From Deltaproteobacteria bacterium (lineage in GTDB: Bacteria; Desulfobacterota; Desulfobacteria; Desulfobacterales; SURF-15), in assembly GCA_013349495.1 (NCBI GenBank), contig DUZK01000001.1, positions 1 to 56,521 on the forward strand: DNA of 56,521 nt. The letters are read 5' to 3'. Of this stretch, positions 1 through 53,265 are shown piece after piece. The translations under genes and the position numbers were made by a program. The notes under the pieces were generated by a model. The model saw only the letters and a list, made by a program, of their open reading frames with translations. It did not search any database and was not told the origin of the DNA. The stretch's first letter is position 1, and each line of letters opens with the position of its first letter.

Positions 1-2
1 GC

Positions 3-74
3 ATCCGGGCCCTCGGTGTCTATCTTTGCGAGACCCACGGACCGGAACTCAAACGGTATTACCATCAGCTCCGG
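3..74 (+). other. C-terminal helix of an ACP domain whose start lies off-window
   Basis: IRALGVYLCETHGPEL aligns by eye with the ends of ACP1 (LESLAAFLCEAYADSL) and ACP3 (INRLAAYLAETYGGL). A linker and KS1 follow it. Confidence 0.5.
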
Positions 75-3000
75 CCGGAATCGGAAGATAAGGCATCAGA
101 CGCCGGTCCGGTGATCCAGACGGCGGGTTTACACCCGGTGGCCGAACAGCCGGAAGCCGTTTCCCTGCCGGCCGTATCCGAGGAACCGGTGGCCGTCGTC
201 GGCGCCTACGGGATCTTTCCACAATCAGAAGATCTAAGGGCTTTTTGGGACCATCTGGGGGCAAACCGGGACTTGATCACCGAAGTGCCAAAGGATCGGT
301 GGGACTGGAGCGCCTATCACAAGGGGTCGGCAGATGAAAAAACCTATCTGAAATGGGGTGGATTCATTGCCGGTGTCGACCGGTTCGATCCGCTCTTTTT
401 CAATATTTCACCCCGCGACGCCGAGATGATGGACCCCCAGCATCGTCTGTTCATTCAGACCGTCTGGAAAACCGTGGAAGACGCCGGGTACAGCGCCGCA
501 ACCCTGTCCGGACAATCGGTGGGGCTTTTCGTGGGTGTTCAGCACAACGATTATGTGCACCTGCTGGCAAGCCGGGCCGCGGCGCAGACGGCAACCGGAA
601 CCGGACATGCCATGCTGGCCAACCGCGTCTCCTATTTCATGAACTGGCACGGCCCCAGCGAAGCAGTGGACACCGCCTGTTCCAGCAGCCTCGTGGCGCT
701 GCATCGGGCCGTGAGATCGATTCGAAGCGGAGAGAGTCGACTCGCTGTTGCCGGCGGCGTGAGTCTGATGCTTTATCCCGGAACCATGATCGGTGCGGGT
801 GAACTCGGCGTGCTGTCTCCGGACGGACGATGCAAGACCTTCGACCGGAGCGCCAACGGATACGTCAAAGGAGAGGGGGTGGGGGCGGTGCTCTTAAAGC
901 CCCTGAACAAGGCCGTTGCGGACAACGATCACATATATGCGGTCATCAAGGCGACGGCCGTCAATCACGGCGGCAAGGCGAATTCGCTGACGGCTCCCAA
1001 TTCCGACGCCCAGGCCGCCCTTCTGACGGCTGCATACGAGGCGGCAGGGATAGACCCGGACACCGTGACGTATTTGGAACTGCACGGCACCGGCACCGAG
1101 CTGGGTGATCCTGTGGAAGTGGAGGGGATCAAGAAGGCCTTTTCAGATCTGGCCAAACGGACAGGCCGGCCGATCGAGCGAACCCGTTTCTGCGGACTCG
1201 GCGCAGTCAAGACCAACATCGGGCACCTGGAGCCGGCGTCCGGAATCGCCGGGGTGATAAAGGTGCTGCTTTCCATGGCGCACGGCAAACTGCCCGGAAC
1301 CCCGCATTTAAAAGAGTTGAACCCCTATATCGAACTGGAAGATACCCCGTTTTACGTGGTTGAAAAAACGAAACCCTGGAACCGGTTGGAAGACGGCAAC
1401 CGACGGCCGATACCGCGTCGGGCAGGGGTGAGTTCCTTCGGATTCGGCGGCGCCAACGCGCATGTGGTTCTTGAGGAATATCAAGAACCAGTGTTCAGGG
1501 TTCAGAGTTCAGAGTTCAAGGTTAAACCTCAACTTATAGTATTATCGGCCAAGAACGAAGAACGGCTTCTGGATTATGCCAAAGCGTTATTGCGGTTTAT
1601 GGATGAGTCGGCAAGGATGCCGGAGCCGTCCGAAGAGAAGGCATCTCGGGAACAGACCCGGGAAGCGCTCTCAACGCTGGTGGGTGACATTTTTGAGGTG
1701 GCAGCCAAGGATCTGGATCCGGATGAAACCTTTGAGTCCCTAGGGCTGGATCAAGTCGGATCAATCACTTTGGCGGACAAGGTCAATGAGCGATATGCTT
1801 TGACCGTAAACGCGTCCCATTTCATGGAATATTCGTCTATCAACAGACTGACGCAATACATCATCACAAATCACGCATCGCACATCGAGTATCGAGAATC
1901 GAGTATCAAGAATCGAGTATCAAATATCGAGCATCGAGCATCCAGTATCGAGAACATCGCCTTCACCCTCCAGGTCGGACGCGATGCCATGGCCCATCGG
2001 ATGGCCATGGTGGTTTCAGGTTTCAAAGACCTTCAGGGGAAGTTGACGCAATATATCCGGACTCAAAAAGAAGCAGAAGATCTCTTTCTGGGGAACATTA
2101 AAACGGACGAGGCAAAATCCGAAGGCCTGATCGAGGGGAAAGAAGGGAAAGCCTTTGTCGACAGCATCATAAAGGAGCGGAAGCTGAGTAAACTCGCGCG
2201 GCTGTGGGTATCCGGAACAGCCATCGATTGGATGACACTCTATCCCGACGATAAACCGCGACGGGTTTCGTTGCCCACCTACCCCTTTGCCGAAGACCGA
2301 TTTTGGATACCTGAAAAAGCAGGGGGCATGGCGCATGGGGCAGAGGGGAAAAGCAGCGCCGATCGTCTCCATCCGCTACTGGGAAGCAATACCTCGACGC
2401 TGAAAGAACAACAGTATACGACCCTGTTTACGGGGGAAGAGTTTTATCTTACGGATCATGTGGTGGCCGGGCGGAAGACCCTGCCGGGGGTAGCCTATCT
2501 CGAAATGGCCCGGGCTGCCGCCGAGATGGCGGGTGAACCGGGTATGAACCGGTTGTCGAATGTGGTCTGGATCCGCCCCATCGGGGTGACCGATGCGCCG
2601 CAAACGGTCCATATCCGCTTGATGCCCCAGGGGGAGGCCATCGGCTTTTACGTCGTTACCAAAGACGATGCCGGAAAAGACCGGGTCCACGCACAGGGTA
2701 AGATCTCTTCGGTCGGTTCCGATTCAGGCCCAAGGGATCGCCTCGACATTAAAGCCGTCAAGGCAGATTCCAAGGCAACCCTAAATCGGGACGACTGCTA
2801 CCGGATGTTCCGATCGGCAGGCCTTGATTACGGCCCCGGATTCCGAGTGGTCGAAAAAATATTTCTCACCGGGAAAAAAGCGCTGTCCCGGTGGGTGCTT
2901 CCCGAGGCATATCGGGAAAGCCGCGGGATGTTTGTTCTGCACCCGGCCATAATGGACGGGGCGCTCCAGACGGTGTTGGGATTGATGGGGCAAGTCGCAT

Positions 3001-6000
3001 CCGAAACCCCTTATCTCCCCTATACCATCGGAGAAGTGAAATGGTTTAGACCCCTTGGCTATCAGGGGTATGCCCTCGCCGGTTACGCAGGTAATCCGGG
3101 TTCCGGAGAATTGACCTTTGATATCGATCTTTTGGACGAAACCGGGGCGGTGGCGGTCGGTATGAAAGATTTTACCACAAGAGCCGTTAAACAAAAGACG
3201 GCGGCTCCGGTTCGGATCTATTATAAAGCGGAATGGGAAGCGTCGCCCGTCCGGTCCCATCGCGTCGAACCGGCATCACCGATACTGCTGTTCGATACCG
3301 ACACCGAGCGCCGGGATACCCTCAGTGGGCGGTTGAATACCGGCGTCATACTGGTTCTACCGGGTGAGCGGTATGAGCAGCTGGATGAAAAGACCTACAC
3401 GATTTGTCCCGAAGACCGTAAAGGATACCATCAGGTACTGTCTTGCCTGGCTGAAGCGGGACGCCTTCCGGAATGCATCGTTCACCTCTGGTCCCAGGAC
3501 GAATTTTCACCTGATAAACAAGCACTCGATAGACAGCTCGAACGGGGTTTTTATTCGATCTTCCATATCACACAGGCGTTTCTGGATCGGGTGCCGGCCG
3601 AATCCATCCGGCTCCTGTATCTGTTTCGGGAACCGGCCCACGGGGCCCAGCCCCAATACGCGGCCATGGCCGGATTTGTGAAGACGCTCCGTCTGGAACA
3701 CCCGAAACTGGCGTGCCGGACGATCGGCGTCGCCGAATCCATGTCGATGACCGAGGCGGTGATAACAGAGATACGGGGCGACGGCGGTATGGATATCCGG
3801 TATCGGGACAACCTTCGCTGGGAGCGCCGCCTTGAGACATTCGACCTTTTAGCCGATTCTGACGGCGGCGTCGGGCTGAAAGAAAACGGGGTCTACCTGC
3901 TGACCGGCGGTGCCGGCGGGCTCGGGTTGATCTTTGCCGATTTTCTGGCCCGAAAAACAAAGGCCAGACTCGTTTTGACCGGACGATCGGAATTGGATCG
4001 AACGCAAACCCAACGGATCCAAGCGCTGAATGATGCCGGGGCCCGGGTCATCTACATTCCGACGGATATCGCCCATACCGAGGCGGTGGTTCGGTTAAAG
4101 GACCGGATAAAGGCCCGGTTCGGTGAAATCAACGGCATCCTGCACGCGGCGGGCCTGACCCGAGATGCGACCATCGTAAAAAAGAATCCGGATGAAATGG
4201 CACCCATACTGGCCCCCAAGGTTTTCGGTACGGTATGCCTGGATGAGGTCTTTCAATCGGAACCGATCGATTTCTTCATGATGTTTTCATCGGTCGCGGC
4301 CATGATCGGAAACCCGGGCCAGTGCGATTACGCCTTTGCCAACAGCTTTATGGATCATTTTGTTACCCGGCGGGAGGCGCTGCGTAAAGCCGGAAAGCGG
4401 TATGGAAAGACCCTTTCCATCAACTGGCCCCTGTGGCGGGACGGCGGCATGGGGGTGGACCGCCAGACGGAGACCTTCCTAAAAGAGACCCTGGGAATGG
4501 TTTTGCTCGATTCGTCGGAAGGCTGGGAGGCCTTTGAACAGGGGCTCGCCTCCGGTTCGACCCGGTTTATGCTGATCAAGGGACAGCGCCCGAAGCTTGA
4601 AAGATGGATGGCGTACAAACCGGATGCGTCGTCATCGGTTCAAGGGGAAAGCGATGCCCCGGGGTTACGTGAAGCGGCCGGCAGAGCGTTGCGATCGATT
4701 GTCTCTGAGATTTTGAAGATGGATTTCAATGCCATCGATGCGGATGAAGAGATCAGTACTTACGGATTCGACTCCATCAGTTTTACGGAGCTTGCCAACC
4801 GGATCAACGGCAGCTTGGGCCTTGAGGTCACACCGGCGCTCTTTTTCGAATATACGACCCTGGAGAGTCTGGCGGCGTTTCTGTGCGAAGCCTACGCCGA
4901 CTCCCTGGCAGCCCATTTTCAAGGGAGACGTTCGAAATCCCCATCGATTGAAATAAAGAAATCCCCGTCCCAAAGCCGTTTCCGAATACCGGAGCCGGTT
5001 CCGGATGCCCCCCGGACAGCGGGTGAAATGCCGATTGCCGTGATCGGAATGAGTGCCGTGATGCCCGGATCCGAAAATCCGGAGAAATTCTGGCAACACC
5101 TGACAGCCGGTGACGACCTCATCAACGAGGTCCCGGCCGATCGGTGGGACTGGAAATCGTTGTATGGTGACCCTGCTACAGAGCCGAATAAAACCCGTGC
5201 CAAATGGGGCGGGTTCATTGCGGATGTGGATCGTTTCGATCCCCTCTTTTTCGGGATATCGCCGAAAGAAGCGGAACTCATGGATCCCCAGCAGCGGCTC
5301 TTTCTTGAAACCGTATGGAAAACCATTGAAGATGCGGGATACCGGGCAGCCGATGTCGCAGGGACCGATACCGGTCTGTTTGTGGGTGTGGCGGCCAATG
5401 ACTACGCGGAATTGCTGGGTCGTTGCGCTTCCGAGATCGAAGCGCACACCTCCACCGGTATGTCCCATTCCATGCTGCCGAACCGGATCTCCTATCTGCT
5501 GGACCTTCACGGACCCAGCGAACCCATCGATACGGCCTGTTCCAGTTCCCTTGTGGCCATTCATCGGGCTGTCGAGGCGATCCGAAGCGGCACCTGCGAA
5601 ATGGCCATTGCTGGCGGGGTGAACGTGATACTGACCCCCACGGCCACCATATCCTTTGACAAGGCCGGCATGTTGAGCCCGGACGGCCGATGCAAGACCT
5701 TTGATAAACGGGCCGACGGGTACGTGCGGGGGGAAGGCGTGGGAGCCGTAATGCTGAAGCCGATGGACCGCGCAGTGGCGGACGGAGACTGGATATATGC
5801 GGTGATCCGGGGAACCGCTGTAAATCACGGTGGAAAGGCTAACTCACTTACAGCCCCGAACCCCAAGGCTCAGACGAGCCTGATCGTCAAGGCCTATGAA
5901 CGGGCGAAGATCCCGGCCCATACCGTCGGTTACATCGAAGCCCACGGCACTGGCACATCTCTGGGCGATCCCATTGAAATCAATGCCCTGAAAAATGCCT

Positions 6001-9000
6001 TTTCCGCACTCTATGAGAGGGAAAAAAAGCCGATTCCCGAAGCCCCCTGCTGCGGACTGGGATCGGTGAAGACCAATATCGGGCATCTGGAAACCGCAGC
6101 CGGCATTGCCGGTGTCATCAAGGTGCTCCTGGCCTTGAAACACCGGAAACTGCCGCCGAACATCCACTTTGAGGAACTCAATCCCTATATCGAACTGGTC
6201 GGAAGCCCCTTTTTCATTGTCACTGAAAATCGGGACTGGGAGCCGCCCGTGGATGAAAACGGGAACCGGCTGCCCCGTCGGGCGGGGATCAGCTCCTTTG
6301 GTTTCGGCGGCGCCAATGCGCATGTGGTTCTTGAAGAATATCAAGAACCAGAGGTCAGGGGTGAGGGGTCAGAGGGCAGAGGGCATAGTGCAGAGAGCAT
6401 AGGGCAAGGGGGAAACAAAAGGGAGACCTTAGAAGAATCACAGAGGGAGTCGAGTATCGCGTCCCAGCTCATCGTGCTGTCGGCAAAGAATGAGGAACGG
6501 CTAAGAGAATATGCCAAACGAATGGCGGATTTTCTCGAAATTCAACATTCAAAACTAAAAATTAAAAATTTGAGCATAGCGGATATCGCCTATACCCTGC
6601 AGACGGGCCGGGAACCCTTTGAACGGCGGTTGGCTATTGTGGCAACCGATCTTAAAGATGCCGAAAGCAAACTGAAACAATTTGCCCAGGGCTCAGACGC
6701 CGTTGAGGGGCTGTTCCTGGGGCACACCAAAAGCAGTGGGATCCATACCGACTTGTTGACCAAAGGAGCAGCCGGGGAAGCCTTCCTGCAATTATCCATC
6801 GAGAAAAAGGAATTCCATAATCTCGGACAGCTCTGGGTGTCGGGTATCGATATCGACTGGAACCGGCTCCATGAAAACCTCGCTCCCCGGCGTATACCGC
6901 TTCCCACCTACCCTTTTGCCCGGGAACGATACTGGCTGCCGGTAGCAAAAGGCGCGCCTGCTGCGCCGCCTCCGGTGGTTTCTGCACCCCGCAAAAATGA
7001 TCCCAACAGCGCGCCTGTGGGGATCTTCTTTCGGCGCTTCGGTCAGGGGGCAGCCGATATCCCCCTTGAAAAACGGGTGGAAGCGGGCATTCAAGAGATT
7101 GCCGCAGAGATCGTCAAACTCGATGCGGGACGGCTCGATCCAGAAGAAAGCCTGGGGCTCTTCGGGTTCGATTCCATCACCCTTAAACAACTGAGCAATA
7201 AAATCGGCAGGCTGGTTGAGGTGGAGTTGCCGCCGTCCATTTTTTTCGCCCACGGAACCATCCGGGGATTGAGCCGATACCTGGTCGATACCTTTGGGAA
7301 CAAGATTCGGTCGATATATGGTGACGGTGGCGATTTGACTCCTGTCATACCGGGCACCGAAGACGGCGTCGAGCCCGTTGACACCAAGGCGGCATCCATC
7401 AATGACGCGACTCCGCCGGTAATGCCGGATATCCGGATTCCGGAGGCCGGCCGGTATCATGAACAAGATTTTCCGGTGGCCATCATCGGCGCCCACGGCC
7501 TGTTTCCCGAATCGCAAAACCTGACGGAATTCTGGAATCATCTGGAGGCGGCCGACCACCTCATTGGTGAAGTTCCCAAAGACCGGTGGAACTGGCAGGA
7601 TTTCTCCATCGATCCCGAGACCGGCAAAGAGCGGCCCTATGTCAAGTGGGGCGGATTCATCAAGGATGTGGATAAATTCGATCCCGCGTTTTTCAAGATT
7701 TCTCCCCGGGAAGCTGAGATGATGGATCCCCAGCACCGGCTTTTTACCGAAGTCGTGTGGAAGACCATCGAAGATGCGGGATACGATGCAACCGCCCTTT
7801 CCGACCGATTTATCGGAATCTTTGCCGGGTTGCAGTTCAACGATTACCAGCAGATGCTGGTGCGGCAAAGCAGGGGGGACGCCCAGATATCCACTGGAAC
7901 GGCCAACTCCATGTTGACCAATCGTATTTCATTTTTGATGAACTGGCACGGTCCCAGCGAATCGATCGACACGGCCTGTTCCGGCAGCCTGGTCGCCGTT
8001 CATCGGGCCGTCAAATCGATTCAAACCGGTGAGTGCGAGATGGCCGTTGCCGGGGGGGTGAGCCTGATGCTGTCTCCGGCATCCATGATTGGTGCCGGCA
8101 GCCTCGGCGTGCTCTCCCCCAAAGGCCGCTGCAAGGCCTTGGATAAAGATGCGGACGGATATGTCAAAGGTGAAGGGGTGGGGGCGGTTTTTTTGAAACC
8201 GCTTGATCGGGCCATTGCCGATCATGATCATATCTATGCCATAATCAGAGGGTCTGCGGTCAACCATGGCGGCAAGGCCACCTCGTTGACGGCTCCCAGC
8301 AGCGAAGCGCAGGCCGCCCTCCTGTATGCCGCCTATCGGAATGCGGGGATAGAGGCCGATACCGTTACCTTTCTGGAGTTGCACGGAACCGGAACCGAGC
8401 TGGGAGATCCGGTGGAGATCGACGGTATCAAAAAGGCGTTTGCCCATCTCCTGAACGGAAAAACGCCTGTTTCGGAAACCGATCCGTTCTGCGGGATCGG
8501 TTCGGTCAAGACCAATATCGGGCACCTGGAACCGGCGGCCGGTATTGCCGGGTTGTTTAAACTGATGCTCGCCATGGCGCACGGAAAACTTCCGGCGACG
8601 CTTCATTTAAAAGAACTCAACCCATTGATAAAATTGGAACAAACACCTTTTTACGTTGTGGATCAAACAAGGGCCTGGAAACGGCTCACCGACACCCACG
8701 GCAACCCCATCCCCAGGAGGGCCGGGGTCAGCGCCTTCGGGTTCGGCGGGACCAATGCACACATCATTTTGGAAGAATATGAACAAAATGAGGTCAGAGG
8801 TCAGGGGGCAGAGGTCAGGGATGAGCCTCAGCTCATCGTGCTGTCGGCAAAGAATGAGGAGCGCCTCAGGAAGTATGCAGAGGATATGGTCGAATTCATC
8901 GACCGTCAAAAATCGAAAACCCGCCACACGGACGGCGGACAAGTCGAGAATCGAAAACCCGCCACACATACGGCGGGCAAGTCGAGCATCGAGGACATCG

Positions 9001-12000
9001 CTTATACGCTGCAGGCGGGCCGGCAGCCGATGGCGGAACGACTGGCTCTGGTCGCTTCGACCCTTGAAGAATTGGCGTTAAAACTGAAACGCTTTGCCCA
9101 GGGGCATGACACCGTGGATGAACTTCATCGGGGCACCGTCCGGGTCGGTCAGAGCAGAGCAAGCCTTATGGTGGACGACAAAGAAGGGGAGTCGTATATC
9201 CTAAGCCTCATGAAGGGGTGGAAACTGGGCAAGTTGGCGAAGATGTGGGTCAACGGGGTCGATTTCGATTGGGATCTGCTCCATCCGGACAGGCACCCGT
9301 TCCGTGTTTCGCTTCCCACCTATCCCTTTGCCCGGGAGCGGTATTGGCTGCCCCAGGTTTCTGATGACAAGCGATATCAGACCGTTGAAACGCCCATGCC
9401 AGAGACAGAATCGATACCGGGGGCCGCCCCCGGATCACTCTGTTTCGAGCCCGACTGGAAGCTCTCCGCCATCGATATCGAGTCTGAATCGAAATCGCCC
9501 GGCGGCCCGCTGCTGATCCTGGGCGCCGGCGAGGCCGACAGAGACCTGTTAACGGGGCGCCTGAGCGGGGACATGGTTCTGGTTGTTTCCGGCAGTCGAT
9601 TCAGAAAAATCGATCCCCAAACCTATGAAATCGATCCGGCGGATACGGCCGATTATGAACGGCTGTTTCAGGCCCTGCAACAGAAACACGGCGTTCCGAA
9701 AACCGTGGTGCATCTCTGGGCACTCGATTCGAAGGTCGGGAAAATAGATGCGGATATGGAAACCCAACTCCAAAGGGGGGTATATTCGGTTTTCCTTCTG
9801 CTTAAGGCGATCGCCAACAGTCAATCCGACCCGGATACCCGGATCTTTTTCTTTGGCCCCGATGAACCGGTAAACCCGTTTTTCGAGGCGGTATCCGGAT
9901 ATGGCCGGTCCATCCGGTTCGCCATGCCGAAGGTGAATTTCACGACGGTTCAGGTGAGTGAGGCCGGCAAAGACCTGGCCGACATTATCTGTGCGGAAAT
10001 GACCCGCGAATCCGGGGAGGAATTTCCGGAGGTCCGCTACCGAAAGGGGCAAAGATACATACGGTCTTTCCGCCCCATCGCGTTGGGGACCGAAGGAACC
10101 GGTGTTGGGATCAGGCACAAAGGGGTCTATCTGATTACCGGCGGGGCCGGCGGGTTGGGAATGATACTGGCTCGATATTTAAAGGAAACCTACCGGGCCG
10201 TACCGATCCTTACGGGACGCTCTCCCCTGGCAGGGGAGAAGCACGCACGGCTCGAGGAGATTTTCGGGCCGGAAACGGAAGGGATCTATTTTCAAGCCGA
10301 TATCTCAAACCGTGAACAGATGATAGGCGTCATTGAAACGGTTCGGAAACGGTTCGGTCCCCTAAACGGTGTGATTCATGCGGCCGGCGTATCATCCATC
10401 GCTCCGATCCACATGAAGGATGCGGCGGAGTTTGCAGCCACAGTTAAACCGAAAATCCACGGCACTCTGGTGCTCGACAGTGTCACCCGGGAAGAGCCCC
10501 TCGATTTTTTTATGCTTTTCTCCTCCACGTCGGCCCTTTTGGGAGACTTCGGACAGGGCGATTATGCGGTGGCCAATCGATTCCTGGACGGATTTGCCCG
10601 TTACCGGGAAACGCTCAAGGCTCAGGGAGCCCGCCGGGGTCGAACCCTTTCCATCAATTGGCCCCTCTGGCGGGACGGCGGTCTCCATATGAATCCTGAA
10701 ATGGAGACCTTCTACTTTCAGACGTCCGGGATGACCTTTCTGGAGACGGAAACCGGCCTGACCTTTTTCGAGAGGGTGCTCAAAAGCGAGGCGTGCCAGG
10801 CAGGGGTGATTTCAGGCGATCTCGACCGGATAAGTCGATTTTTAGGGATGGACCGAATGGAAAGGGCGCCGGATGAGGCAATGGATGTTGAAAACGTCGG
10901 AACCGGAAACCTCGTTTCGGACCTCCGGCAAATCGCCGCCCGGGTCTTGAAGACCGATGCCGAAAAACTGGATGCGGACGAAAGCCTGGCCGACTTTGGA
11001 TTCGATTCCATCATGCTGAAACTGTTGGCGGATGACCTGAATGCGGTCTATGGCATCGAGGTCTCTCCCTCCCTGTTTTTTGCCCACCCCACCATCAACC
11101 GATTGGCTGCATACCTGGCGGAAACATATGGCGGGCTGGTTAAGCACCCGGAGCCTAAGCCGATGAAAGCGGCCCGACCCGTTTGGAAGGTTGAGGACGA
11201 AGCCGACTTTTCCGCCACGGCCGGAGATACAACCGATTTATCCCATGAACCGATCGCCGTTGTGGGCATGCACGGCGTCTTTCCGGGCTCCCGGAATCTT
11301 AGCGAGTTTTGGAAGCATCTTGAGAACGGAATAAATCTTGTCAGCGAAATTCCAAAAGACCGGTGGGACTGGCGGGACTATTTCGGTGATCCCACCCTTG
11401 ATCCGGGCAAGACCGATTCCAAGTGGGGCGGGTTCATCACCGATATGGACAAATTCGATCCCCGGTTTTTCAAGATCTCCCCTCGGGAAGCCGAAATGAT
11501 GGATCCCCAGCACCGGCTCTTTATCGAAACCGTCTGGAAGGCGGTGGAAGACGCCGGCATTCGGGCGTCTTCATTATCCGGGGCCATTGTGGGGGTCTTT
11601 GCCGGGCTGCAATTCAAGGATTACGAGCAGTTGATGGCCAAAGGGAACCAAAGCAACGCCTATTCGGGAACCGGGATCGCCATGGCCATGCTGGCCAACC
11701 GGGTGTCCTATCTGATGAACTGGCATGGCCCCAGCGAGACCATCGACACGGCCTGTTCCAGCAGCTTGGTTGCAGTCAACCGGGCGGTCAAATCGCTGCG
11801 CAACCGGGAGTGCGATATGGCCGTTGCCGGAGGCGTGAGTCTGCTCCTGTCCCCATTGACTCTTATCGGGGCGAGTCAACTCGGTGTGTTGTCTCCGGAC
11901 GGGCGATGCAGAACCCTCGATAAGCGGGCCAACGGGTACGTTAAGGGAGAAGGGGTGGGGGCGGTGCTGTTGAAACCGCTGAGCCGGGCCATGGCCGACG

Positions 12001-14075: not shown

Positions 14076-14079
14076 GGCC

Positions 14080-17000
14080 ATGAAAACGGAAGCATTAACT
14101 CAAAATCAGATTATCGACATGGTGGAGCGCCGTCAAATCGCTCCCAAAGAGGGCCTTAAACTGCTCAAGCGATTGCAGGTAAATGGGGGGCGGGCGCTGT
14201 CGGATTCATCAGACCTATTTTTTTGCCGGCCGGTATGGAAGGAGATGGCTGATGGCTTTTCATCGGCGATGCGGCGGGTTTCCGGAGACATCCTGGTCAT
14301 TTATGAAAACGAGGCCGTTGACAAAATCCTAGAGGATCGGTTGGGGTCGGATGATTTTGGGCAAGCGCGATTTATTTTTACAAAGACCGGAACCCGCTTC
14401 GAGGCAAAGGGCCCCGGCCGCTTCACGATTCGTCCCGATCACCCGGATGACTACAATCGATTGCTTCAAGCACTCAACAAGGATTCCGGACCGCCCCGGA
14501 CCATTCTCCACCTCCTGTCCAACGATCCGTATACCGGGGAAGAAAACAGCTTGAAGGCTCAGATCGGTGCGGGTCTCTATTCCCTGTTTTTTCTGACTCG
14601 CGCGCTGCTCGCGTTAAAACCGACCGATAGGGTCCAGATTATATATTTTTATCAGGAACCTTCGGGCCGATCCCAACCCCAATATGCGGGGTGCAGCGGT
14701 TTTGCAAGAACCCTTGGGCTGGAAAGCAGGACGGTTGCCATAAAAACCGTTTCGATTCCGGATATTCAAAAAATTGCTGCCCTCTCGATTCCCAGAATTC
14801 TCGCGGTGGAAGATGTGGAGATTCGATTTCGCGGGGACCGATATCTGGTTCGAGCGCTTGAGGAATCGATACCGGACGACGCATCGGATCCCATCGGTCC
14901 GTTAAAGGAAAACGGCGTATATCTGCTGACCGGCGGGGCCGGCGGATTGGGGTTTGTTTTTGCGGAGCACCTGGCCAAACAGGTGAAGGCGAAATTGATA
15001 CTCACCGGGCGATCCCCTCTCGGTGATGAAAAAGCTTTGAAAATAGAAGCCTTGAGGGGTTTGGGTTCGGAAGTGATCTACATTCAGGCGGATGTATCCA
15101 GACAAGAGGCGGCCCACGCCCTCATCGCCCAGGCACGCTCCCGGTTCAACCGCATAAACGGCGTCATTCATTGCGCGGGGATCGTGAGGGACAATCTCAT
15201 TATCAACAAGCCGGTTGACGACCTGTCCGCCGTGATAGCCGCAAAGGTGTTCGGAACCCTTCACATGGATGCGGCCACCAAAGACGAACCGCTCGATTTT
15301 TTCGTTCTCTTCTCCTCTGTTTCGGCCGTTACCGGAAACATGGGACAGGCCGACTACGCCTATGCCAACAGCTTCATGGATCATTTTGTTTCCGTTCGGG
15401 AGCAGTCGAGACGCGAATCGAGACGGACGGGAAAAACCATATCCATCAACTGGCCCTTGTGGCGGGAAGGCGGCATGCGGGTGGATGCCCAAACCGAGAT
15501 ATTCCTCGCCCAGACTGCCGGCATGAAGCCGCTCAATCGGATGTCGGGCCTAAACGCCTTTTCTTTGTGCCTCGCTTCAAGCCACAATCGGTGGATGGTG
15601 GCGGCGGGAAACCGCGGACAGATCAGGCGGGCACTGATAGGTAAACCGGATCATGCCGGGCTCAACCGCCCGGATGCCGGTGTCCGTAAAAGAGACTTTC
15701 TTTCTGCCCTCGGCAACGATGTCCTCTCCATCGCTTCCGATATTTTAAAAATCGACACCCAGGATATCGACTGGAATGAGGATATTGGCGAATACGGGTT
15801 CGATTCCATCAGTTTTACGGAATTTGCCAATCGAATCAATCGGCAATTCCGTCTGGATATCACCCCTGCCGTATTTTTCGAGCTGCCCTCAATCGGCGCG
15901 TTCACCGAATTCCTTGCCGGAAATTACACCGATCAGTTATCCGATTACTATCGAGCCGATTCGACGGTATTGACGGCGCCCGAGCCGAAACGACCGGCGG
16001 TGGAAGGGGGTGAAAATCTCGAACCGTTTATTGCCGACCGGTTTCAGCTTCCGGCCGTCGAACCGGTCCACGCGGGAGCAGAAGACCGGTCCATTGCCGT
16101 CATCGGCATGAGCGGTGCCATGCCCGGATCCGAAGATCCGGAAGCCTTCTGGAAACACCTGGTCGCCGGAGACGACCTGATCACCGAAGTTCCGAAAGAC
16201 CGATGGGACTGGCGGCGCTTTGAACTCGATTCGACCGTCGACACCGATCAAATCAAGTGGGGCGGGTTCATGCCGGATGTGGACAAGTTCGATTGCCTCT
16301 TTTTCGGCATTTCTCCAAGGGAGGCGGAGTTGATGGATCCCCAGCAACGGCTCTTTATGGAAACCGTGTGGAAAACCATCGAAGACGCCGGGTACGCTCC
16401 CTCGAGCCTGTCGGGCACCCGAACCGGCCTGTTTGTCGGGGTGGCCACCAGCGACTACGTGGAACTCGTCCGGGATCGTGCCGCCGAAATCGAAGCCCAT
16501 GCCGCCACCGGCATGTCCCACTGCATTCTGGCCAACCGGATTTCATACCTGCTCGACATTCACGGACCCAGCGAACCCATCGATACCGCTTGCTCCAGTT
16601 CACTGGTAGCGATCCACCGGGCCGTGGAGGCCATCCGCAGCGGCAGCTGCGACGCGGCCATCGCCGGGGGGGTGAATGTGATCCTCGCACCGTCCCTTAC
16701 CATCGCCTTCGGCAAGGCCGGCATGTTGAGCCCCGACGGACGCTGCAAAACCTTTGACGCCCGTGCCGACGGATACGTCCGGGGAGAGGGGGCCGGTGCG
16801 GTGTTGTTGAAACCGCTGAGCCGGGCCGTTGCTGACGGTGATCACATCTATGCCGTTATCCGGGGCACGGCCGAAAACCACGGAGGGCGGGCAAAATCCC
16901 TGACAGCCCCCAACCCCAACGCCCAGGCGGATCTCCTGGTGGATGCCTACGAGAACGCCGGCGTGGCGCCGGACAGCGTCACCTACATCGAAGCCCACGG

Positions 17001-20000
17001 CACCGGTACCCGGCTGGGGGATCCTATTGAAATCAACGGGCTGAAGAAGGCCTTTGAAGCGCTTTGCAAAAAACAGGGGAGGACCCTGTCGTCGGAATCC
17101 GTCTGCGGCATCGGATCGGTGAAGACCAATATCGGTCATCTGGAAACGGCCGCCGGTATCGCCAGTGTCATAAAAGTGCTGCTGGCCCTGAAACACCGGA
17201 AACTCCCTGCCAGCATCCATTTCAGAGAGCGGAACCCCTACATCGACCTGACAGGAAGCCCCTTTTATATCGTCTCCGAGACCCGTGATTGGGAGCCGCT
17301 CAAGGATGCGGCCGGCGGGTGGCTCCCCCGGCGGGCCGGTGTGAGCTCCTTCGGATACGGCGGTTCCAACGCGCACATCGTTTTAGAAGAATATCAGGAA
17401 GAAGCGTTCAGTGTTCAGCGTTCAGGGTTCAGCGTTGAGCCACAGCTCATCGTCTTATCGGCCAAGAATGAAGACCGTCTCAAAGAATATGCTGAAAGAA
17501 TGGTTAAATTTCTGGATTCAACTTTGAACTCAGAACATTTAACTCTGAACCTAACCGATTTTGCATATACCCTCCAGGTTGGCCGAGAAGCCATGGAAGA
17601 GAGACTGGCGCTTGTGGTATCCGATGTTGAAGAACTTCAAGCGGAACTCGAAAAATATGCCAGAGGGGATTCTGATACAAGCAAACTCATGCGTGGAAAC
17701 GCAAGGACATTGAGGGGAACATCCGAGCAATTGGTTGAAGGCAGAGCCGGTGCAGCATTTGTTCGTATATTAATGGAAGACAGGGAATTGGGCAAACTCG
17801 GTCAACTCTGGAATTCAGGATTCGATATCGACTGGACATTATTATATCCGCAAAAACCGCCCCAGCGCATATCTCTCCCTACATATCCTTTCGCAAAGGA
17901 GCGGCATTGGCTGCCGAAGATGGTAGAGAGCCCCAGTGAAATGGGGTCTGGATTTCACGGGGTAAACATAGAGCAGAGGGCAAAGGGGTTTGGATATGAG
18001 GGAAAATTTCATCCTTTGCTTGATGCAAACATATCAACGCTGAAAGAACAACGGTTTACCACACAATTCACCGGCAAAGAGTTTTTTCTTGCCGATCATG
18101 TTCTTGCTGGGCAGAAGACTCTACCCGGTGTCGCCTATCTTGAGATGGCACTGGCTTCCGGAATGGCGGCTGCTGAGGAAGAAACCCGCAAACTTATTAA
18201 TATTGTTTGGGCGAGTCCCATTACCGTGCCGGATAAGCCCCAGAACGTTTTTATCAGTCTATATCCGGAGACTGCGGATGATAAAGTAGGGTTTGAGGTT
18301 ACCACCTTAAAAGAAGAAGGGCAGCGGCAGGTACATGCTCAAGGAAAACTGATCTTTGAAAGCCGATCATCCATTGTTGATGAAGTGATAGATATTGATT
18401 CTATTCAAACGCGTTGTACGGAGAGAGTCAGTGGTCCGGTGTGCTATCAGGCATTCCAATCTTCCGGCCTCCATTACGGTCCCGCTTTCCAGACGATCCA
18501 GGAGTTATTCCGAAGCGATAACGAAGCCTTATCGCTTCTTGTATTACCGGAAGAACTCGGGGGGAGTTTTCGTAACTTCTGTCTTCATCCCTCATTAATG
18601 GATGGCGCCCTACAAACGGTGGGGGCATTGATGAGCAGTAGCACCATAGGAACCCCGCATGTTCCATTTGCTTTAGGTGAAGTGATATGGATAAGACCTT
18701 TAACCGAAAAGTGCTATGCCCACGTCACCTCGGCAGAATATTCCGTGGATCCGAACCTGAAAAAATTTGACATTGATATAACGAATGAAGATGGACAAGT
18801 GCTGGTCCGCATGAAAGATCTTTCCATTCGAGCACTTGGACCATCCGAGGATAAGTACGAAACAATGTATTTCTCCGGCCAATGGGAATCATCACCATCG
18901 AATACCCCGCCTGCAACACAGTTTCTCTACGGTAACCTATTGTTGTTGGATACCGATGAAACTCGACAGAATGCGCTTTGCGAACAGTTGAAAACGGATG
19001 TCCTCCTGGTGAAGCCGGGAAAAAGTTTTCGAATGATCAACCCGAACACTTTTTCAATTCATCCGGGCAATCCTGATGATTATCGAAGGTTAATGAAAGC
19101 CCTGAAAAAAAATGATCGACTGCCTGAACACATCGTTCACCTGTGGTCGCAAGAGAATTTTACAGATGATGCAGGGGTACTGAATACCCAGATTGAAAGG
19201 AGTTTCTACTCTATCCTCCACCTCAGTCAAGCCCTGTTAGAATTTAAGTCCCGTGACAAGATTCAACTTCTATACATATACCCGGAACCACCGGAAGACC
19301 CCCAACCTCATTATGCAGCAATAGCCGGATTTGCCAAAACAATTCGATTGGAGATTCCGCGGTTTCAATACAAAACCATAGCCTTACCTGATTTCTCCCA
19401 TGTGGCAGATGTCGTTTCAGCTGAATTTCAAACCGATGAAGGTGTGGAGATTCGCTATCAGGATGGTCGAAGACAAATGAGACATCTGATTGAATATAAA
19501 CCGATTCCGGATGATGTTTCTCCTGAATCACTGTTGAGAGAAAACGGGGTATATATACTGACAGGCGGTACCGGTGGATTGGGACTGATCTTTGCGGAAT
19601 ACATTGCCAGACAAGTTAAAACTAAGTTGGTGCTAACAGGCCGTAGCCCTTTAAACGAGGAAAAATCCGCTAAAATTCAGATCCTAAACGATCTCGGCGC
19701 AGAAGCCGTATATATACAAGCGGACATCTCCAATCTTGAAGATGTCAAGGGGCTCATCGCCCATGTGAAATCACGATTTAACGATATCAGGGGGATTATT
19801 CACTGTGCCGGGGTTATTCGTGATGCCAGTATCGCCAAGAAAACTCCAGAAGAGGCGGCATCCGTGTTGGCACCAAAAGTATACGGCACGCTGCATCTGG
19901 ACAAGGAAACAGGATCAGAACCTCTGGATTTTTTCGTGTTGTTTTCATCCACTACTGCTGTTCTGGGAAATGCAGGGCAATCTGATTATGCTTATGCAAA

Positions 20001-23000
20001 CAGCTTTATGGATAACTTTTCTGTGTGGCGGGAGAAATTGCGGTTAGAGAAAAGACGATTTGGGAAGACGCTTTCCATAAACTGGCCGTTGTGGCAAGAC
20101 GGCGGAATGAGTATTGACCATAGGGCGGAAAAACTTCTGATACATGCGGCTGGAATTCGGCTTCTTAAAACACCTGACGGATTGGAAGCATTTTTCAGGG
20201 CTTTGGCCATGAAATTCAGCCAACTGACGGTGATAGACGGTATTCGCCGAAAAGTACGAGGTTTAGTTGTCGGCGACGGCCTTCGACGTCACGAATCCGA
20301 AGATATCGCCTCCCACTCGGTCGCACGCAAGGTTGAAGGAAAGCTGCTTCAAAATCTTCGTGAAGGATTGTTAAAAATGGCATCGGAGATCCTGAAAATC
20401 GAGGAGTCGGCCATCGATTTGGATGAAGATCTTAGTGCTTACGGTTTTGAGTCCATCACCTTCACTGAATTGGCGAATTGTATCAACGAGAAGTACAAAC
20501 TTGAAATTACGCCCACACTATTTTTCGAATACCCTTCGCTCCGATCGATCTCGCAATTCCTGTGTGAAACATATCAAAACAATATCTCAGAGGACTTTAG
20601 GAATGACGCTTCATTCATTTCACGTTCTGAATCCGATGAAGATACAGTTTTCGTCGAACCGATACAGAGAAACCGATTTCAAGTCCCCCATGACTCTGTG
20701 TACAAGCATCCATTGCCGGTTAATGTCCCGATAGCGATCATAGGAATGAGCGGCGTGATGCCCCAATCCGAAAATCTTGAGATCTTCTGGCAGCATCTTT
20801 ATAGAGGAAACGATCTGATCACGGAAGTGCCCAGGCATCGCTGGGATTGGGAAGCTTGGCATGACCATACGGCGGAAGAAGATATCAAGGCCATGGCCAA
20901 ATGGGGTGGTTTTATACCGGATGTGGATAAGTTCGATCCTCTGTTTTTTGGAATTTTACCCAGAGAAGCAGAACTGATGGATCCTCAACAACGACTCTTT
21001 TTGCAAACGGTATGGAATACCATAGAGGATGCCGGATATAAAATATCGACGCTTTCAGGCACCAATACCGGCGTATTCGTCGGAGTGGCTTCAAGTGATT
21101 ATGCCGAGATAATCCGTCAAAACGTTTCTAAGGTAGACCCCTATACATCAACCGGAATGGCGCATTCTGTTTTGGCAAATCGTATTTCCTATCTGCTCAA
21201 TCTGCATGGACCGAGTGAACCGATCGATACGGCTTGTTCCAGCTCTCTGGTCGCAATTCACCGAGCAGTGGAAGCCATCCACAGTGGAAGTTGTGAAATG
21301 GCCATAGCCGGGGGGGTCAATGCCATTTTAACCCCAACGTTGAATATATCCTTTGGAAGTGCCGGCATGCTGAGTAAAGACGGCCGTTGTAAGACATTCG
21401 ATAAACATGCGGATGGTTATGTCCGAGGTGAAGGGGTGGGGGCAGTGCTGCTGAAACCCTTGAACCGCGCTCAGACTGACGGTGACCATATTTATGGAGT
21501 GATTATCGGGACAGCCGTAAATCACGGAGGCCACGCCGCTTCGCTGACCGCTCCCAATCCGAAGGCGTTAGCTCAATTACTTATTCATGCATATAAAAGA
21601 GCGAATATCAAGATGGATACCGTAAGTTACATCGAAGCCCATGGAACAGGCACTGCTCTTGGGGACCCCATAGAAATCGACGGACTCAAACGTGCTTATG
21701 CTGAGTTGTGTAATGGCGAAGGAAAATCCCCAACCGTTCCCGCGCATTGCGGTCTGGGGTCGGTAAAGACAAATATCGGTCATTTGGAAACAGCAGCAGG
21801 TATCGCGGGTGTAATTAAAGTCCTGCTGTCGATGAAGCACAGGAAGCTTCCTCCCAGCATCAATTTCAAAGAACTCAATCCGTATATCCAACTTGAAGAC
21901 AGCCCATTTTACATTGTTACGGCTGCCCGCAATTGGGAACAATTGAGAGAAGATATCGGTCGTCCGATTCCGCGCCGCGCAGGGGTGAGTTCCTTCGGGT
22001 TCGGAGGAGCCAATGCGCATATTGTTTTGGAAGAATATGAAGAACCAGAGGTCAGCGGTCAGGGGTCAAGGGTCAGGGGTGAGCCGCAACTCATTGTAAT
22101 GTCGGCTAAAAACGAAGATAGACTTTATGCCTATGTAGAAAAGATGTTGGAATACCTGGACCAGGGGATGGACGTATCAGCTCCATCGGGTAAGGATGCA
22201 CCCCGTGAAGCAGTTTTTAAAAAAGTGTTGATTCTCATCGCTGATATCTTAAGGGTGGGGGAAGAGGATATCAATCCGGAGGAGCCTTTCGAAGAATACG
22301 GATTTGATCAAATCGGATTGACGGGTTTGGCAGAAAAGATAAGCGAAAGGTATTCATTAAACATCACTTCTTCCTTATTCACGGAATATTCGTCAATCAG
22401 CAAGTTGGCACAATACCTTACCCAGCATCGAGCATCAAGTCTAGAGCATCAAGCATCCAACGCTACCGATCTTTCTCTTTCCGATCTCGCATATACCCTG
22501 CAGGTAGGTCGGGATGCCATGGAAGAGCGGCTGGCTGTTGTGGTTTCAGACCTGGAGGAGCTTAAAGAAAAGCTAAAACGATTTTCAAACGGTGAACACG
22601 ATTATGAGGATTTCATTCGCGGCAATGCGAAGGCAATCAAAAGTAAATCCGATACTCTCGATCAAGGCAGTGCCGGAAGAGAATCTGTTCCCATCTTAAT
22701 TAAAGACCGTGAGCTCGGCAAACTCGGTCAGTTATGGGTTAACGGTTTCGATATCGACTGGACATTACTGTATCCGAAACAACAGCCTCAGCGCATATCC
22801 ATTCCCACATATCCCTTTGCAAAAAAGCGGTATTGGGTTCCAGAAAGGCAAGCGACTAAGGTAAAGCCACAAGTGGTGGATGAAACGGGTGGAATGAAGC
22901 AGATTCAAAAGCCCGCTGTTCTGGTTTTTCAACCGATATGGGAAAAAACGAGAATAGAATCGGCTCAACCGATTGCCCGAAACATACTTCTATTTGACAC

Positions 23001-52524: not shown

Positions 52525-53265
52525 TCAAGCAGCCGGATCGAGTTTGGGTCTTAAACTGACGCAGTTTTTCATGTTCAGCACATGGCTGTTTTCCGTCAAA
52601 CGGTCAATCAGGGCGGCAGTCAGATGATCGTTTTTCAAAAACGACGTCCACTGAGAAAATCCGAGATTGGACGTAATCAGCGTCGGTTTTCGCTTGTGTC
52701 GTTTATGCATCAGGGTAAAAAACAGACCGACCTGCACCGGCTCCACCTCGACATATCCAAGTTCGTCGATCAACAAACAATCATATGCGATAAATTTCTT
52801 GATCACCTTTGCCTCCGTATGATCGGCAACGGATTGATAAAGACGTTCCACCAAGTCAGGGAAAGCGATAAAACGGCCGTTGTATCCGTTGTTGATGGCA
52901 TGAATCAAAAACGACGTGGCCAAGCCGGTTTTGCCCACGCCTGTCGGGCCGATGAAGATTATATTGCGACATTTCGTCATGTAATCGAAGGCGTCATACA
53001 TATCCATGGTTTTCTTTTTGTTCAATTTCGGCTGTTGGTTGAACGGGAATGTCTCAATGACCCATTTTTCGGGGATCTTGGCTCTGGTGAGTCTCATTTT
53101 TCGGGAGTTTTCCTTCTTGATTTGATACTCCTCGTCGATAATATATTGCAACATCCGCGCATGTGAGTAGTTTCCTTTTTGGGCGATTGAAAGATGCCGC
53201 TCCCAGTTGGCGAGCAATCCGCCAAGCCGAAGGTAGTTGAGCTTTTGGATCAGTTCGTCATTCAT
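52525..53265 (-). CDS. istB: IS21-family helper ATPase IstB
   Basis: Walker A is FIGPTGVGKTGLATSF; Walker B is CLLIDELGYV; also TSNLGFSQW. The likely start MNDELIQKLNYLRL is at 53265, overlapping the istA stop (ATGAATGA). Confidence 0.9.
   Translation of the reverse strand: MNDELIQKLNYLRLGGLLANWERHLSIAQKGNYSHARMLQYIIDEEYQIKKENSRKMRLTRAKIPEKWVIETFPFNQQPKLNKKKTMDMYDAFDYMTKCRNIIFIGPTGVGKTGLATSFLIHAINNGYNGRFIAFPDLVERLYQSVADHTEAKVIKKFIAYDCLLIDELGYVEVEPVQVGLFFTLMHKRHKRKPTLITSNLGFSQWTSFLKNDHLTAALIDRLTENSHVLNMKNCVSLRPKLDPAA

Follow-up and report, generated by a model that had tools for sequence, protein, structure and literature searches.

Heptanucleotide repeat arrays at two linker sites of a trans-AT polyketide synthase: probable homogenisation of DNA at constant length

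Introduction

How does a tandem repeat whose unit is not a multiple of three bases persist in a long coding region? Repeats of this kind are expected to be purged from essential genes, yet at least twelve persist in a single assembly line encoded on contig DUZK01000001.1 of GenBank assembly GCA_013349495.1, from a deltaproteobacterium, and homologues occur in related clusters. The DNA analysed here, called the window, comprises positions 1 to 56,521 of that contig. The first 25.7 kb of the window contain two trans-acyltransferase (trans-AT) polyketide synthase (PKS) genes, with six ketosynthase (KS) domains in total, each followed by a linker domain (LD) of the RhiE/CurL type. An earlier description, made from the sequence without database searches and referred to below as the original prediction, pointed out head-to-tail copies of a seven-nucleotide unit between KS and LD in each module. 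The explanation we regard as reasonably probable is that these are heptanucleotide microsatellites in two permissive KS-LD segments, homogenised at the DNA level and locked in length by selection.

Results

Period-7 arrays occupy two sites near each KS/LD junction

Tandem Repeats Finder identified period-7 arrays at 1489-1518, 6349-6410, 8790-8818, 12569-12599 (4.4 perfect copies of GTTCAGG), 17403-17440 and 22046-22080, in agreement with the predicted arrays in all six post-KS linkers (site 1; units are given in Table 1). The units are read in all three phases and give peptides with a period of seven residues (FRVQGSGFRV, EVRGQGAEVR), also as predicted. Copy number had been described as four to nine and as differing between modules. 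This part does not stand: five of the six linkers are exactly 16 codons long, corresponding to five units when the degenerate last unit GKTGAKC is included, and only that of module 2 is longer (41 codons). The GTT and GGT flavours of the unit do not track the tree of the KS or that of the LD.

A second set of period-7 arrays, missing from the original prediction, lies 100-400 nucleotides 3' of site 1, just before the IAYTLQxGR helix (site 2; Table 1). The site-2 loop tolerates insertions, since modules 1 and 6 each hold a domain resembling an acyl carrier protein (ACP) there, between LD helix 1 and IAYTLQ. These inserts lack the phosphopantetheine serine; comparable serine-less inserts were seen in P0109 (GMDT), P0405 (GLDP) and L173. 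The loop of module 3 carries, at 8905-8980, a tandem duplication of 38 nucleotides whose copies are 87% identical, each with a short, GC-rich, palindrome-like core (CCGCC...GGCGG).

The arrays exceed chance and are conserved as DNA rather than as peptide

The two-unit pattern GKTCAGRGKTCAGR had six matches, compared with none in 100 dinucleotide shuffles. A stricter null was made by shuffling synonymous codons within the two PKS open reading frames (ORFs), which preserves the protein and its codon usage. Stretches of 28 nucleotides with at least 20, 22 and 24 self-matches at lag 7 numbered 11, 9 and 5, compared with null means of 0.13, 0.01 and 0. At 24 or more of 28, lag 7 gave the five stretches, lag 14 (its multiple) gave one, and the other lags from 3 to 15 gave none. 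The repeats had been expected to stand out from a shuffled-codon null, and they do. With at least three head-to-tail copies beyond chance expectation, the arrays are tandem simple-sequence repeats (microsatellites) of period 7.

Conservation was compared across five 16-codon linkers of the window and that of L131, a related PKS described below. For the 16-codon linker itself, identity was 0.42 for amino acids, 0.73 for nucleotides and 0.77 for third codon positions. The 21 codons at the end of the KS, just before the linker, gave 0.83, 0.78 and 0.55, respectively, and the 25 codons that begin the LD, just after it, gave 0.64, 0.64 and 0.34. Third positions across the KS as a whole are about 0.4 identical between modules, which is near saturation; the array region is the most conserved nucleotide stretch across modules. 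Because nucleotide and third-position identity in the linker greatly exceed amino acid identity, the opposite of the flanks, conservation of the linker ignores codon structure and acts at the nucleotide level. Within arrays the units are homogenised: the mean Hamming distance between units is 0.73 within arrays and 1.76 between them (0 of 5000 permutations), and the units of one array evolve in concert. The claim that the signal is clearer in nucleotides than in peptide is thus upheld. Homologues have either the nucleotide repeat or a different peptide; none was found that encodes the same peptide in unrelated codons.

Both sites are predicted to be flexible surface segments

An AlphaFold (AF2) model was made for the C-terminal half of the module-4 KS together with its LD (mean predicted local distance difference test score, pLDDT, 79). 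Site 1 is modelled as a coil (residues 186-202) that runs from the last KS strand (NAHVVLEE) to the first LD strand (QLIVLSA); within it, residues 192-197 have pLDDT below 50. For site 2 the model shows the alpha1-alpha2 loop, at the surface, where LD helices 1 and 2 join. The solved KS-LD structures 7ZMA and 4NA1 have an unrelated linker sequence of similar length at the array position. In the preferred explanation the arrays are confined to the only two segments near the KS/LD junction which would tolerate arbitrary sequence, and the encoded peptide would be no more than a polar, flexible spacer.

Sequence turns over while length stays constant

The closest genome match to the window is L004, a 4.7-kb contig from a metagenome-assembled genome (MAG) of an uncultured member of the Desulfobacteraceae, with 93-95% nucleotide identity to 12682-17425. 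At module-4 site 2, the window has three copies of TCGAAAC followed by TCGAAAA, where L004 has four copies of TCGAAAA. The arrays are equal in length, against a background divergence of about 7%, and one A/C substitution is repeated in register in three successive units. Perfect arrays occur both in module 4 of the window and in L152, from lineages about 28% diverged.

Linkers of exactly 16 residues make up 10 of 14 in the family (5 of 6 modules in the window, L131, 2 of 3 in L152 and 2 of 3 in L256). Three independent assemblies, of what is essentially one genome, agree in their copy numbers: the window, Logan L001 (SRR26275509) and ENA L254/L256 (ERZ27247117). The window is 99.98% identical to L001 without gaps and aligns with L254/L256 without gaps over 23 kb, so that no indel occurs over 11-23 kb overall. 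Copy-number polymorphism among close relatives was not seen in L001, L254 or L256, nor in L004 at site 2, and the seven assemblies examined include no ON/OFF length variants, all being in frame at the assembly level. The sequence half of the proposed "slippage-prone variable linkers" is therefore borne out, by the triple A/C change relative to L004 and by perfect arrays in lineages of about 72% identity, while the length half is contradicted. A slip of one unit would bring a stop within 4-88 codons, so the tracts are frameshift-prone in a trivial sense; no slips are evident, and copy numbers are equal in the three assemblies and in the orthologue.

Related assembly lines with and without arrays

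Arrays occur at both sites in related PKSs from four other assemblies. In the orthologue L004, both contig ends are arrays. L131, an ENA contig whose carbamoyltransferase is 72% identical to that of the window, has GGTCAGG x5 at site 1 and AATCGAA x4.6 at site 2. The JGI contig L152/L173, with about 72% nucleotide identity in its KS regions, carries 5.0 units in each of two site-1 arrays, one being 100% perfect, and has site-2 arrays of CGAAAAT x5.0 (perfect) and AAATCGA x4.6; it also has an ACP insert like that of module 1, followed by ATCGAGT units. L235 is a different PKS with arrays at the same two sites. In L256, ATCCAGT x5.4 occupies the 16-codon slot of site 1. The site-1 array of one L256 module (5221-5330) is split by a non-repetitive insertion of 18 codons (EFRV-HPPASPEREQWRAG-GSGFRVEP), from which it follows that the linker can lengthen by other means too.

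An exhaustive hidden Markov model (HMM) search of 1.84 billion representative proteins found more PKSs with linkers that, at the protein level, match translated heptamer arrays, for example GSGFRVQGS in P0357, P0380 and P0465. P0380 and P0465 also have site-2 inserts of period seven (TDHSTQT/TDNSTQT/PDTSLLS, up to about 90 residues) in addition to GSGFRVQGS at site 1, and these protein sequences suggest that both hold far larger heptamer arrays in the site-2 loop. The exhaustive search was needed: word-indexed protein searches with the KS-LD segment or a 62-residue profile recovered no array-bearing relative, only fragments of about the length of the query.

Arrays are absent from L129/L130 (carbamoyltransferase 77% identical), from L135 (a Desulfobacterales MAG with a similar cluster end) and from six more distant genomic loci. 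The 87 linkers of fragmentary homologues are 13-30 residues long and non-periodic, and most of about 350 linkers in the top HMM matches have no array.

The shared unit belongs to a widespread family with one coding orientation

The complement of each site-1 unit contains CTGA, which gives TGA when the array is read in three phases; only the TCAG orientation can therefore be coding. Stop avoidance combined with polarity was considered as the cause of the shared unit and rejected, as 6534 heptamers pass such a filter.

The exact three-unit pattern has at least 120 matching stretches in IMG/VR, compared with fewer than one expected. When three units were combined with the downstream Ser-Ala-Lys codon context, a combination expected to mark PKS loci, and sought in JGI metagenomes, just 3 of 118 among the matches listed were PKS sequences. 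Among the matches listed, IMG/VR contigs have period 7 as the dominant tandem repeat (467 arrays), with 25% of arrays inside long ORFs as against 67% for random positions. Units in IMG/VR (L009-L128) and JGI (L136-L253) contigs, among the matches listed, share a CTGA core and include CTGACCA, CCTGAAC, ACTGATT and TAACTGA. Heptamer arrays of the GKTCAGN family are a widespread, mostly non-coding repeat class, and the PKS arrays look like members of it that landed or arose in coding DNA.

Some of the environmental contigs among the matches listed have up to about 20 arrays per 10 kb, GC content being mostly 0.5-0.7, and several show adjacent arrays of near-complementary units. Tandem GGGTTCA at 12569-12599 and 6353-6390 of the window, and at 5644-5678 of L152, has at least four G3 tracts with canonical G-quadruplex spacing on the sense strand. 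GGGTTCA is the telomere unit of the Plasmodium type, and some metagenomic matches to the pattern may be eukaryotic telomeres.

Two breakpoints map close to site-1 arrays

The GC content of the window is about 57% until 17.4 kb and about 46% beyond, where it resembles that of the flanking genes. The predicted GC break near 17.4 kb was confirmed by the profile of GC at third codon positions (GC3), which falls from 0.61-0.75 to 0.39 between 300-nucleotide windows starting at 17230 and 17380. Because GC3 is about 0.7 upstream and about 0.4 downstream of so sharp a junction, the assembly line is a hybrid of two differently composed parts. The low-GC part of the second PKS gene matches the flanking genome in composition. 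This junction is breakpoint a in Table 1.

Breakpoint b separates the window from L256 (ERZ27247117 k141_187572). The two are 99.99% identical over 23 kb (12642 to 35683 or beyond; 2 mismatches, gap-free), and positions 1-8430 of L256 encode entirely different PKS modules from those at 1-12510 of the window. The site-1 array precedes the crossover, which falls no later than 12642; that base is the first that the two contigs share and stands 37 nucleotides short of site 2. The difference has two possible sources: near-identical populations are polymorphic for this module block, or one of the assemblies is chimeric. That neither assembler broke its contig at the 12642 junction argues for a single version per sample, and so against a chimeric join.

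Both mapped breakpoints (2 of 2, from array-bearing junctions only) fall within 45 nucleotides of arrays, and neither is inside one. The partners at the 12.6-kb junction have different units (GTTCAGG and ATCCAGT), so the array was not the homology used there. Within the window there are no exact inter-module repeats long enough for homologous recombination or mis-assembly. The suggestion that the arrays are homology patches which promote module exchange thus retains circumstantial support from the proximity of the two breakpoints, and loses ground because neither is inside an array and the units of the partners differ in one case.

Natural trans-AT hybrids are reported to lose similarity behind the NAHVILEE motif, at a site not localised within about 100 residues (Mabesoone et al. 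2024, PMC11260071). Both breakpoints of the window agree with this zone, lying at NAH(V/I)(V/I)LEE or no more than about 40 codons after it. That study describes no nucleotide repeats, and its functional fusion site, LPTYPFx5W, is at the far end of the LD, about 100 residues beyond the arrays of the window.

Discussion

Homogenisation in DNA under selection for length

In this account the arrays are microsatellites, of the general kind of the heptamer repeats common in many prokaryotic genomes, homogenised in DNA and held to length by selection. The evidence shows that the repeat is maintained at the DNA level and not through selection on the peptide. Slipped-strand misalignment with templated repair or gene conversion would homogenise the units with no net change in their number. 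For modules 4 and 5 homogenisation may include correction against the inverted copy; quasi-palindrome correction is a plausible route for the window-specific A-to-C change at module-4 site 2, which raises complementarity to site 1. Selection on reading frame and spacer length would keep the linker at 16 codons, or five units, so that sequence turns over and length does not. Arrays can code in the TCAG orientation alone, and it would be through duplication and recombination of modules that they spread across modules and clusters within one PKS subfamily. They border the natural trans-AT recombination zone, where they are probably passengers rather than drivers.

Several observations weigh against this account. 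Simple slippage predicts variation in length, and none is seen. Outside the PKS, the remaining 30.8 kb of the window contain no heptamer array by Tandem Repeats Finder or by the lag-7 scan, and so give no sign that the host genome is rich in heptamers generally. Both breakpoints adjoin arrays, which a pure passenger model must call a coincidence of module boundaries. The G-N-T-C-A-G core is kept despite near-saturated third positions in the KS (about 0.4) and clusters only about 72% identical, where neutral concerted evolution should make consensus units diverge. A filter for stops and polarity is too weak to help, as it passes 11260 of 16384 heptamers for lack of stops and 6534 of these as mostly polar, and it leaves the shared core unexplained. 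The shared G-N-TCAG core needs common descent, mutational bias or selection at the nucleic-acid level, and is the main unexplained point.

Alternative explanations

The alternative that deserves most attention, although we consider it unlikely, is that the arrays promote recombination at the DNA level: the paired tracts, which bracket the first strand-helix element of the LD, would raise the rate of breaks, misalignment or gene conversion and so drive exchange of module blocks. It would explain why two independent breakpoints in a 25.6-kb PKS lie within 45 nucleotides of site-1 arrays, and it is consistent with the top nucleotide conservation of the array region between modules and with the unbroken contigs at the L256 junction, which argue against a chimeric join. 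The known loss of similarity behind NAHVILEE in natural hybrids fits as well (PMC11260071). The positions are nevertheless imperfect, breakpoint a being about 30 nucleotides upstream of its array, in conserved NAH codons, and breakpoint b at least 42 nucleotides downstream of its own. The arrays are also short (28-35 nucleotides) and imperfect, with no exact inter-module repeat of useful length, and the partners at the 12.6-kb junction carry GTTCAGG and ATCCAGT. Selection for functional hybrids would by itself concentrate at the KS/LD boundary those breakpoints that survive; recombination proceeds without such arrays in most trans-AT PKSs, and L256 or the window could be a metagenome assembly chimera. 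A more specific version is rather doubtful and in our estimate a little less likely again: the paired arrays would be a DNA-level device that marks or destabilises the KS/LD junction, module blocks would be exchanged preferentially between the two arrays, and the G-N-TCAG core would be kept by selection for evolvability or by hitch-hiking rather than by mutational inertia. If so, the window and L256 would provide the first natural breakpoint at nucleotide resolution in the zone behind NAHVILEE.

Other explanations are less probable still. Action in mRNA or single-stranded DNA, through a hairpin between sites 1 and 2, G-quadruplexes formed by GGGTTCA, or less-used codons that pause the ribosome after the KS and aid co-translational folding, is in our view improbable. 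Sites 1 and 2 are complementary in module 4 (z = -3.8) and module 5 (z = -6.1; a 33-nucleotide inverted repeat, 76%), but not in seven other modules tested (z from 0 to +1.7), and the fold z-scores are modest and not conserved; with significance limited to modules 4 and 5, pairing was rejected as a general feature. Four G3 tracts with canonical quadruplex spacing occur in modules 2 and 4, but modules 1 and 5 have one such tract each, and the quadruplex was rejected because its potential is not conserved. In five of six modules the linker codons rank low in codon adaptiveness (5th-10th percentile), an effect that is mild and follows automatically from one unit read in three phases; the rare-codon pause was likewise set aside. 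We give very little credence to selection on the periodic peptide itself, for instance as a motif that the trans-acting acyltransferase recognises or docks on, with nucleotide periodicity as a by-product of origin. In its favour, a docking role has been discussed for the surface of the KS-flanking subdomain in trans-AT PKSs, and peptides of this type, such as GSGFRVQGS, turn up in several clusters of proteins grouped at 50% identity. It is contradicted by three unrelated peptides in one slot (FRVQGSGFRV, EVRGQGSEVRG, PVSSIQYPVSS); moreover, amino acid identity in the linker is far below that of third codon positions, more than 200 other trans-AT linkers are unrelated and non-periodic, and the segment is modelled as low-confidence coil. 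It is similarly hard to believe that the arrays are contingency (phase-variation) tracts, in which gain or loss of a unit would turn the assembly line off or on as a heritable, reversible stop to a costly metabolite. The unit is not a multiple of three, at least twelve tracts lie in two essential ORFs, a one-unit slip would truncate the product within 4-88 codons, and there is precedent in the heptanucleotide and other simple-sequence repeats that act as phase switches in host-adapted pathogens (PMC4679880). However, tracts of four to five units are short for rapid slippage; the window, L001, L256/L254 and, at site 2, L004 agree in copy number, 10 of 14 family linkers are equal in length, and every copy seen is in frame. 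A frameshift switch was not supported, as the assemblies include no length variants. An assembly or sequencing artefact has a negligible chance of being the explanation. Contigs L004 and L001 do end in or beside arrays, so the arrays disturb assembly, but they are the same base for base in three independent assemblies of different source (the window, Logan SRR26275509 and ENA ERZ27247117), homologous arrays occur in four further assemblies, and all of the arrays keep a 25-kb reading frame open. The independent assemblies effectively refute an artefact.

Relation to known repeats

The ingredients are known: heptamer simple-sequence repeats, heptamer arrays in coding orientation at protein peripheries, and recombination at the KS C-terminus. 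Heptamers were reported by Mrazek and colleagues, as summarised in PMC4679880, to be the most abundant of the 5-11-nucleotide repeats in prokaryotes, with polymerase slippage as the proposed origin. Those repeats resemble the present ones in their head-to-tail 7-nucleotide units. According to the same summary (PMC4679880), units that are multiples of three are favoured in genes, whereas the window has 7-nucleotide arrays in essential ORFs, at 12 paralogous positions and with conserved length. TAACTGA direct repeats have been described from marine Beggiatoaceae, cyanobacteria and Bacteroidetes; read forwards they have a stop in every frame, so that only the reverse can code (MacGregor 2015, PMC4679880). 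Most lie between genes, immediately before start codons, and were proposed to act in translational regulation; coding copies occur at protein peripheries, and the author suggested tolerance between parts of modular proteins (MacGregor 2015, PMC4679880).

The arrays of the window share with the TAACTGA repeats a CTGA-core heptamer and a single coding orientation, and the two types co-occur, GKTCAGN-type arrays being found with TAACTGA in IMG/VR contigs among the matches listed. They differ in that the units here are GKTCAGN, ATCGAGT and AATCGAA (ATCCAGT in L256), neither TAACTGA nor TCAGTTA, and in that the PKS arrays of the window are all gene-internal, at fixed structural sites. Phase-variable contingency loci are similar in having a unit that is not a multiple of three within coding sequence, where a one-unit slip truncates the product. 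The arrays here are short and many per gene instead of one near the 5' end, and show no copy-number variation among assemblies and orthologues. The short tandemly repeated repetitive (STRR) heptamers of heterocystous cyanobacteria are many-copy tandem families, mostly intergenic. They too form families of tandem heptamers in many copies, but the nearest genome to the window is a Desulfobacteraceae MAG, and the non-PKS DNA of the window has no arrays. A literature search for heptanucleotide repeats in PKS genes and for STRR returned nothing relevant, and no description of such arrays was found in the literature searched.

Fixed length combined with turnover of sequence makes the arrays a clean natural example of a mutational process and selection acting on different properties of one sequence. 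They also flag, at the nucleotide level, residues around the KS/LD junction that carry no sequence information. The arrays bracket the trans-AT recombination zone whose breakpoint has not been localised (PMC11260071), and the comparison of the window with L256 places one breakpoint within a few tens of bases. If they are only passengers, the finding has curiosity value for repeat biology and cautions assemblers and gene callers.

Gene content of the locus

Table 1. Arrays, inserts, genes and breakpoints of the PKS region, with coordinates in the window.
Feature	Coordinates	Strand	Details
trans-AT PKS gene, part 1	3..14075	+	4 KS; frame runs off the 5' end of the window; Pfam: 4x KS, KR, DH, ACP, RhiE-like KS-MAT linker, no AT
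trans-AT PKS gene, part 2	14080..25683	+	2 KS, terminal thioesterase; Pfam
Site 1, module 1	1493..1527	+	GTTCAGG GTTCAGA GTTCAGA GTTCAAG GTTAAAC; in 16-codon KS-to-LD linker
Site 1, module 2	6353..6415	+	nine GGTCAGG-type units; 41-codon linker
Site 1, module 3	8792..8826	+	GGTCAGA GGTCAGG GGGCAGA GGTCAGG GATGAGC
Site 1, module 4	12569..12603	+	four perfect GTTCAGG, then GTTGATC
Site 1, module 5	17406..17440	+	GTTCAGT GTTCAGC GTTCAGG GTTCAGC GTTGAGC; left arm of inverted repeat
Site 1, module 6	22050..22084	+	GGTCAGC GGTCAGG GGTCAAG GGTCAGG GGTGAGC
Site 2, module 1	1877..1954	+	ATCGAGT/ATCGAGA x9.9; behind ACP-like insert, before IAFTLQ
Site 2, module 2	6538..6570	+	AAATTAA-type x4.7, weak
Site 2, module 3	8905..8992	+	38-nucleotide unit x2.2 containing AATCGAA units
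Site 2, module 4	12679..12708	+	AACTCGA x4.3, perfect; orthologue L004 has TCGAAAA x4.1
Site 2, module 5	17518..17550	+	degenerate NNNGAAC; inverted complement of module-5 site-1 array (33 nucleotides, 76% complementary; duplex z = -6.1)
Site 2, module 6	22424..22457	+	AGCATCA/AGCATCG x4.9, weak
ACP-like (PP-binding) insert, module-1 LD loop	1665..1862	+	PF00550, E = 3e-14; Ser replaced by Gln (GLDQ)
ACP-like (PP-binding) insert, module-6 LD loop	22222..22419	+	PF00550, E = 3e-15; Ser replaced by Gln (GFDQ)
Breakpoint a	17365..17400		composition and similarity break at NAH codons of KS5 (~17375-17380), ~30 nucleotides before array; GC3 profile, end of near-identity to L004
Breakpoint b, junction with ENA contig L256	12512..12642		38 mismatches in 12512-12641; unrelated upstream of 12510

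The AT domain is absent from the assembly line (Acyl_transf_1 was not found by Pfam). PF22336 and PF22621 lie behind every KS, the LPTYPF motif is present in six of six modules, and there are matches to PDB entries 7ZMA and 4NA1; these segments are KS-flanking linker domains of a trans-AT PKS. The protein of PKS part 2 has an identical copy encoded by ENA contig ERZ27247117 k141_187572. The first PKS ORF has no upstream stop and its frame is open from base 3, so the contig begins within the gene. The GTG at 111, listed as its start, is not the true start, and further modules lie upstream. The gene had been described as a 14-kb ORF; about 14 kb is indeed present in the window, a size set only by the ORF running off the 5' end.

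Genes 3' of the PKS encode a carbamoyltransferase, a glycosyltransferase, a metallophosphoesterase and a phosphopantetheinyl transferase, and relatives of one neighbouring gene bear deltaproteobacterial names. The ORF at 53258-54754 on the minus strand is probably a mobile element close to the PKS cluster; it groups, at 90% identity, with proteins called transposase or helix-turn-helix protein that come from MAGs of Deltaproteobacteria and Pseudomonadota and from many short contigs.

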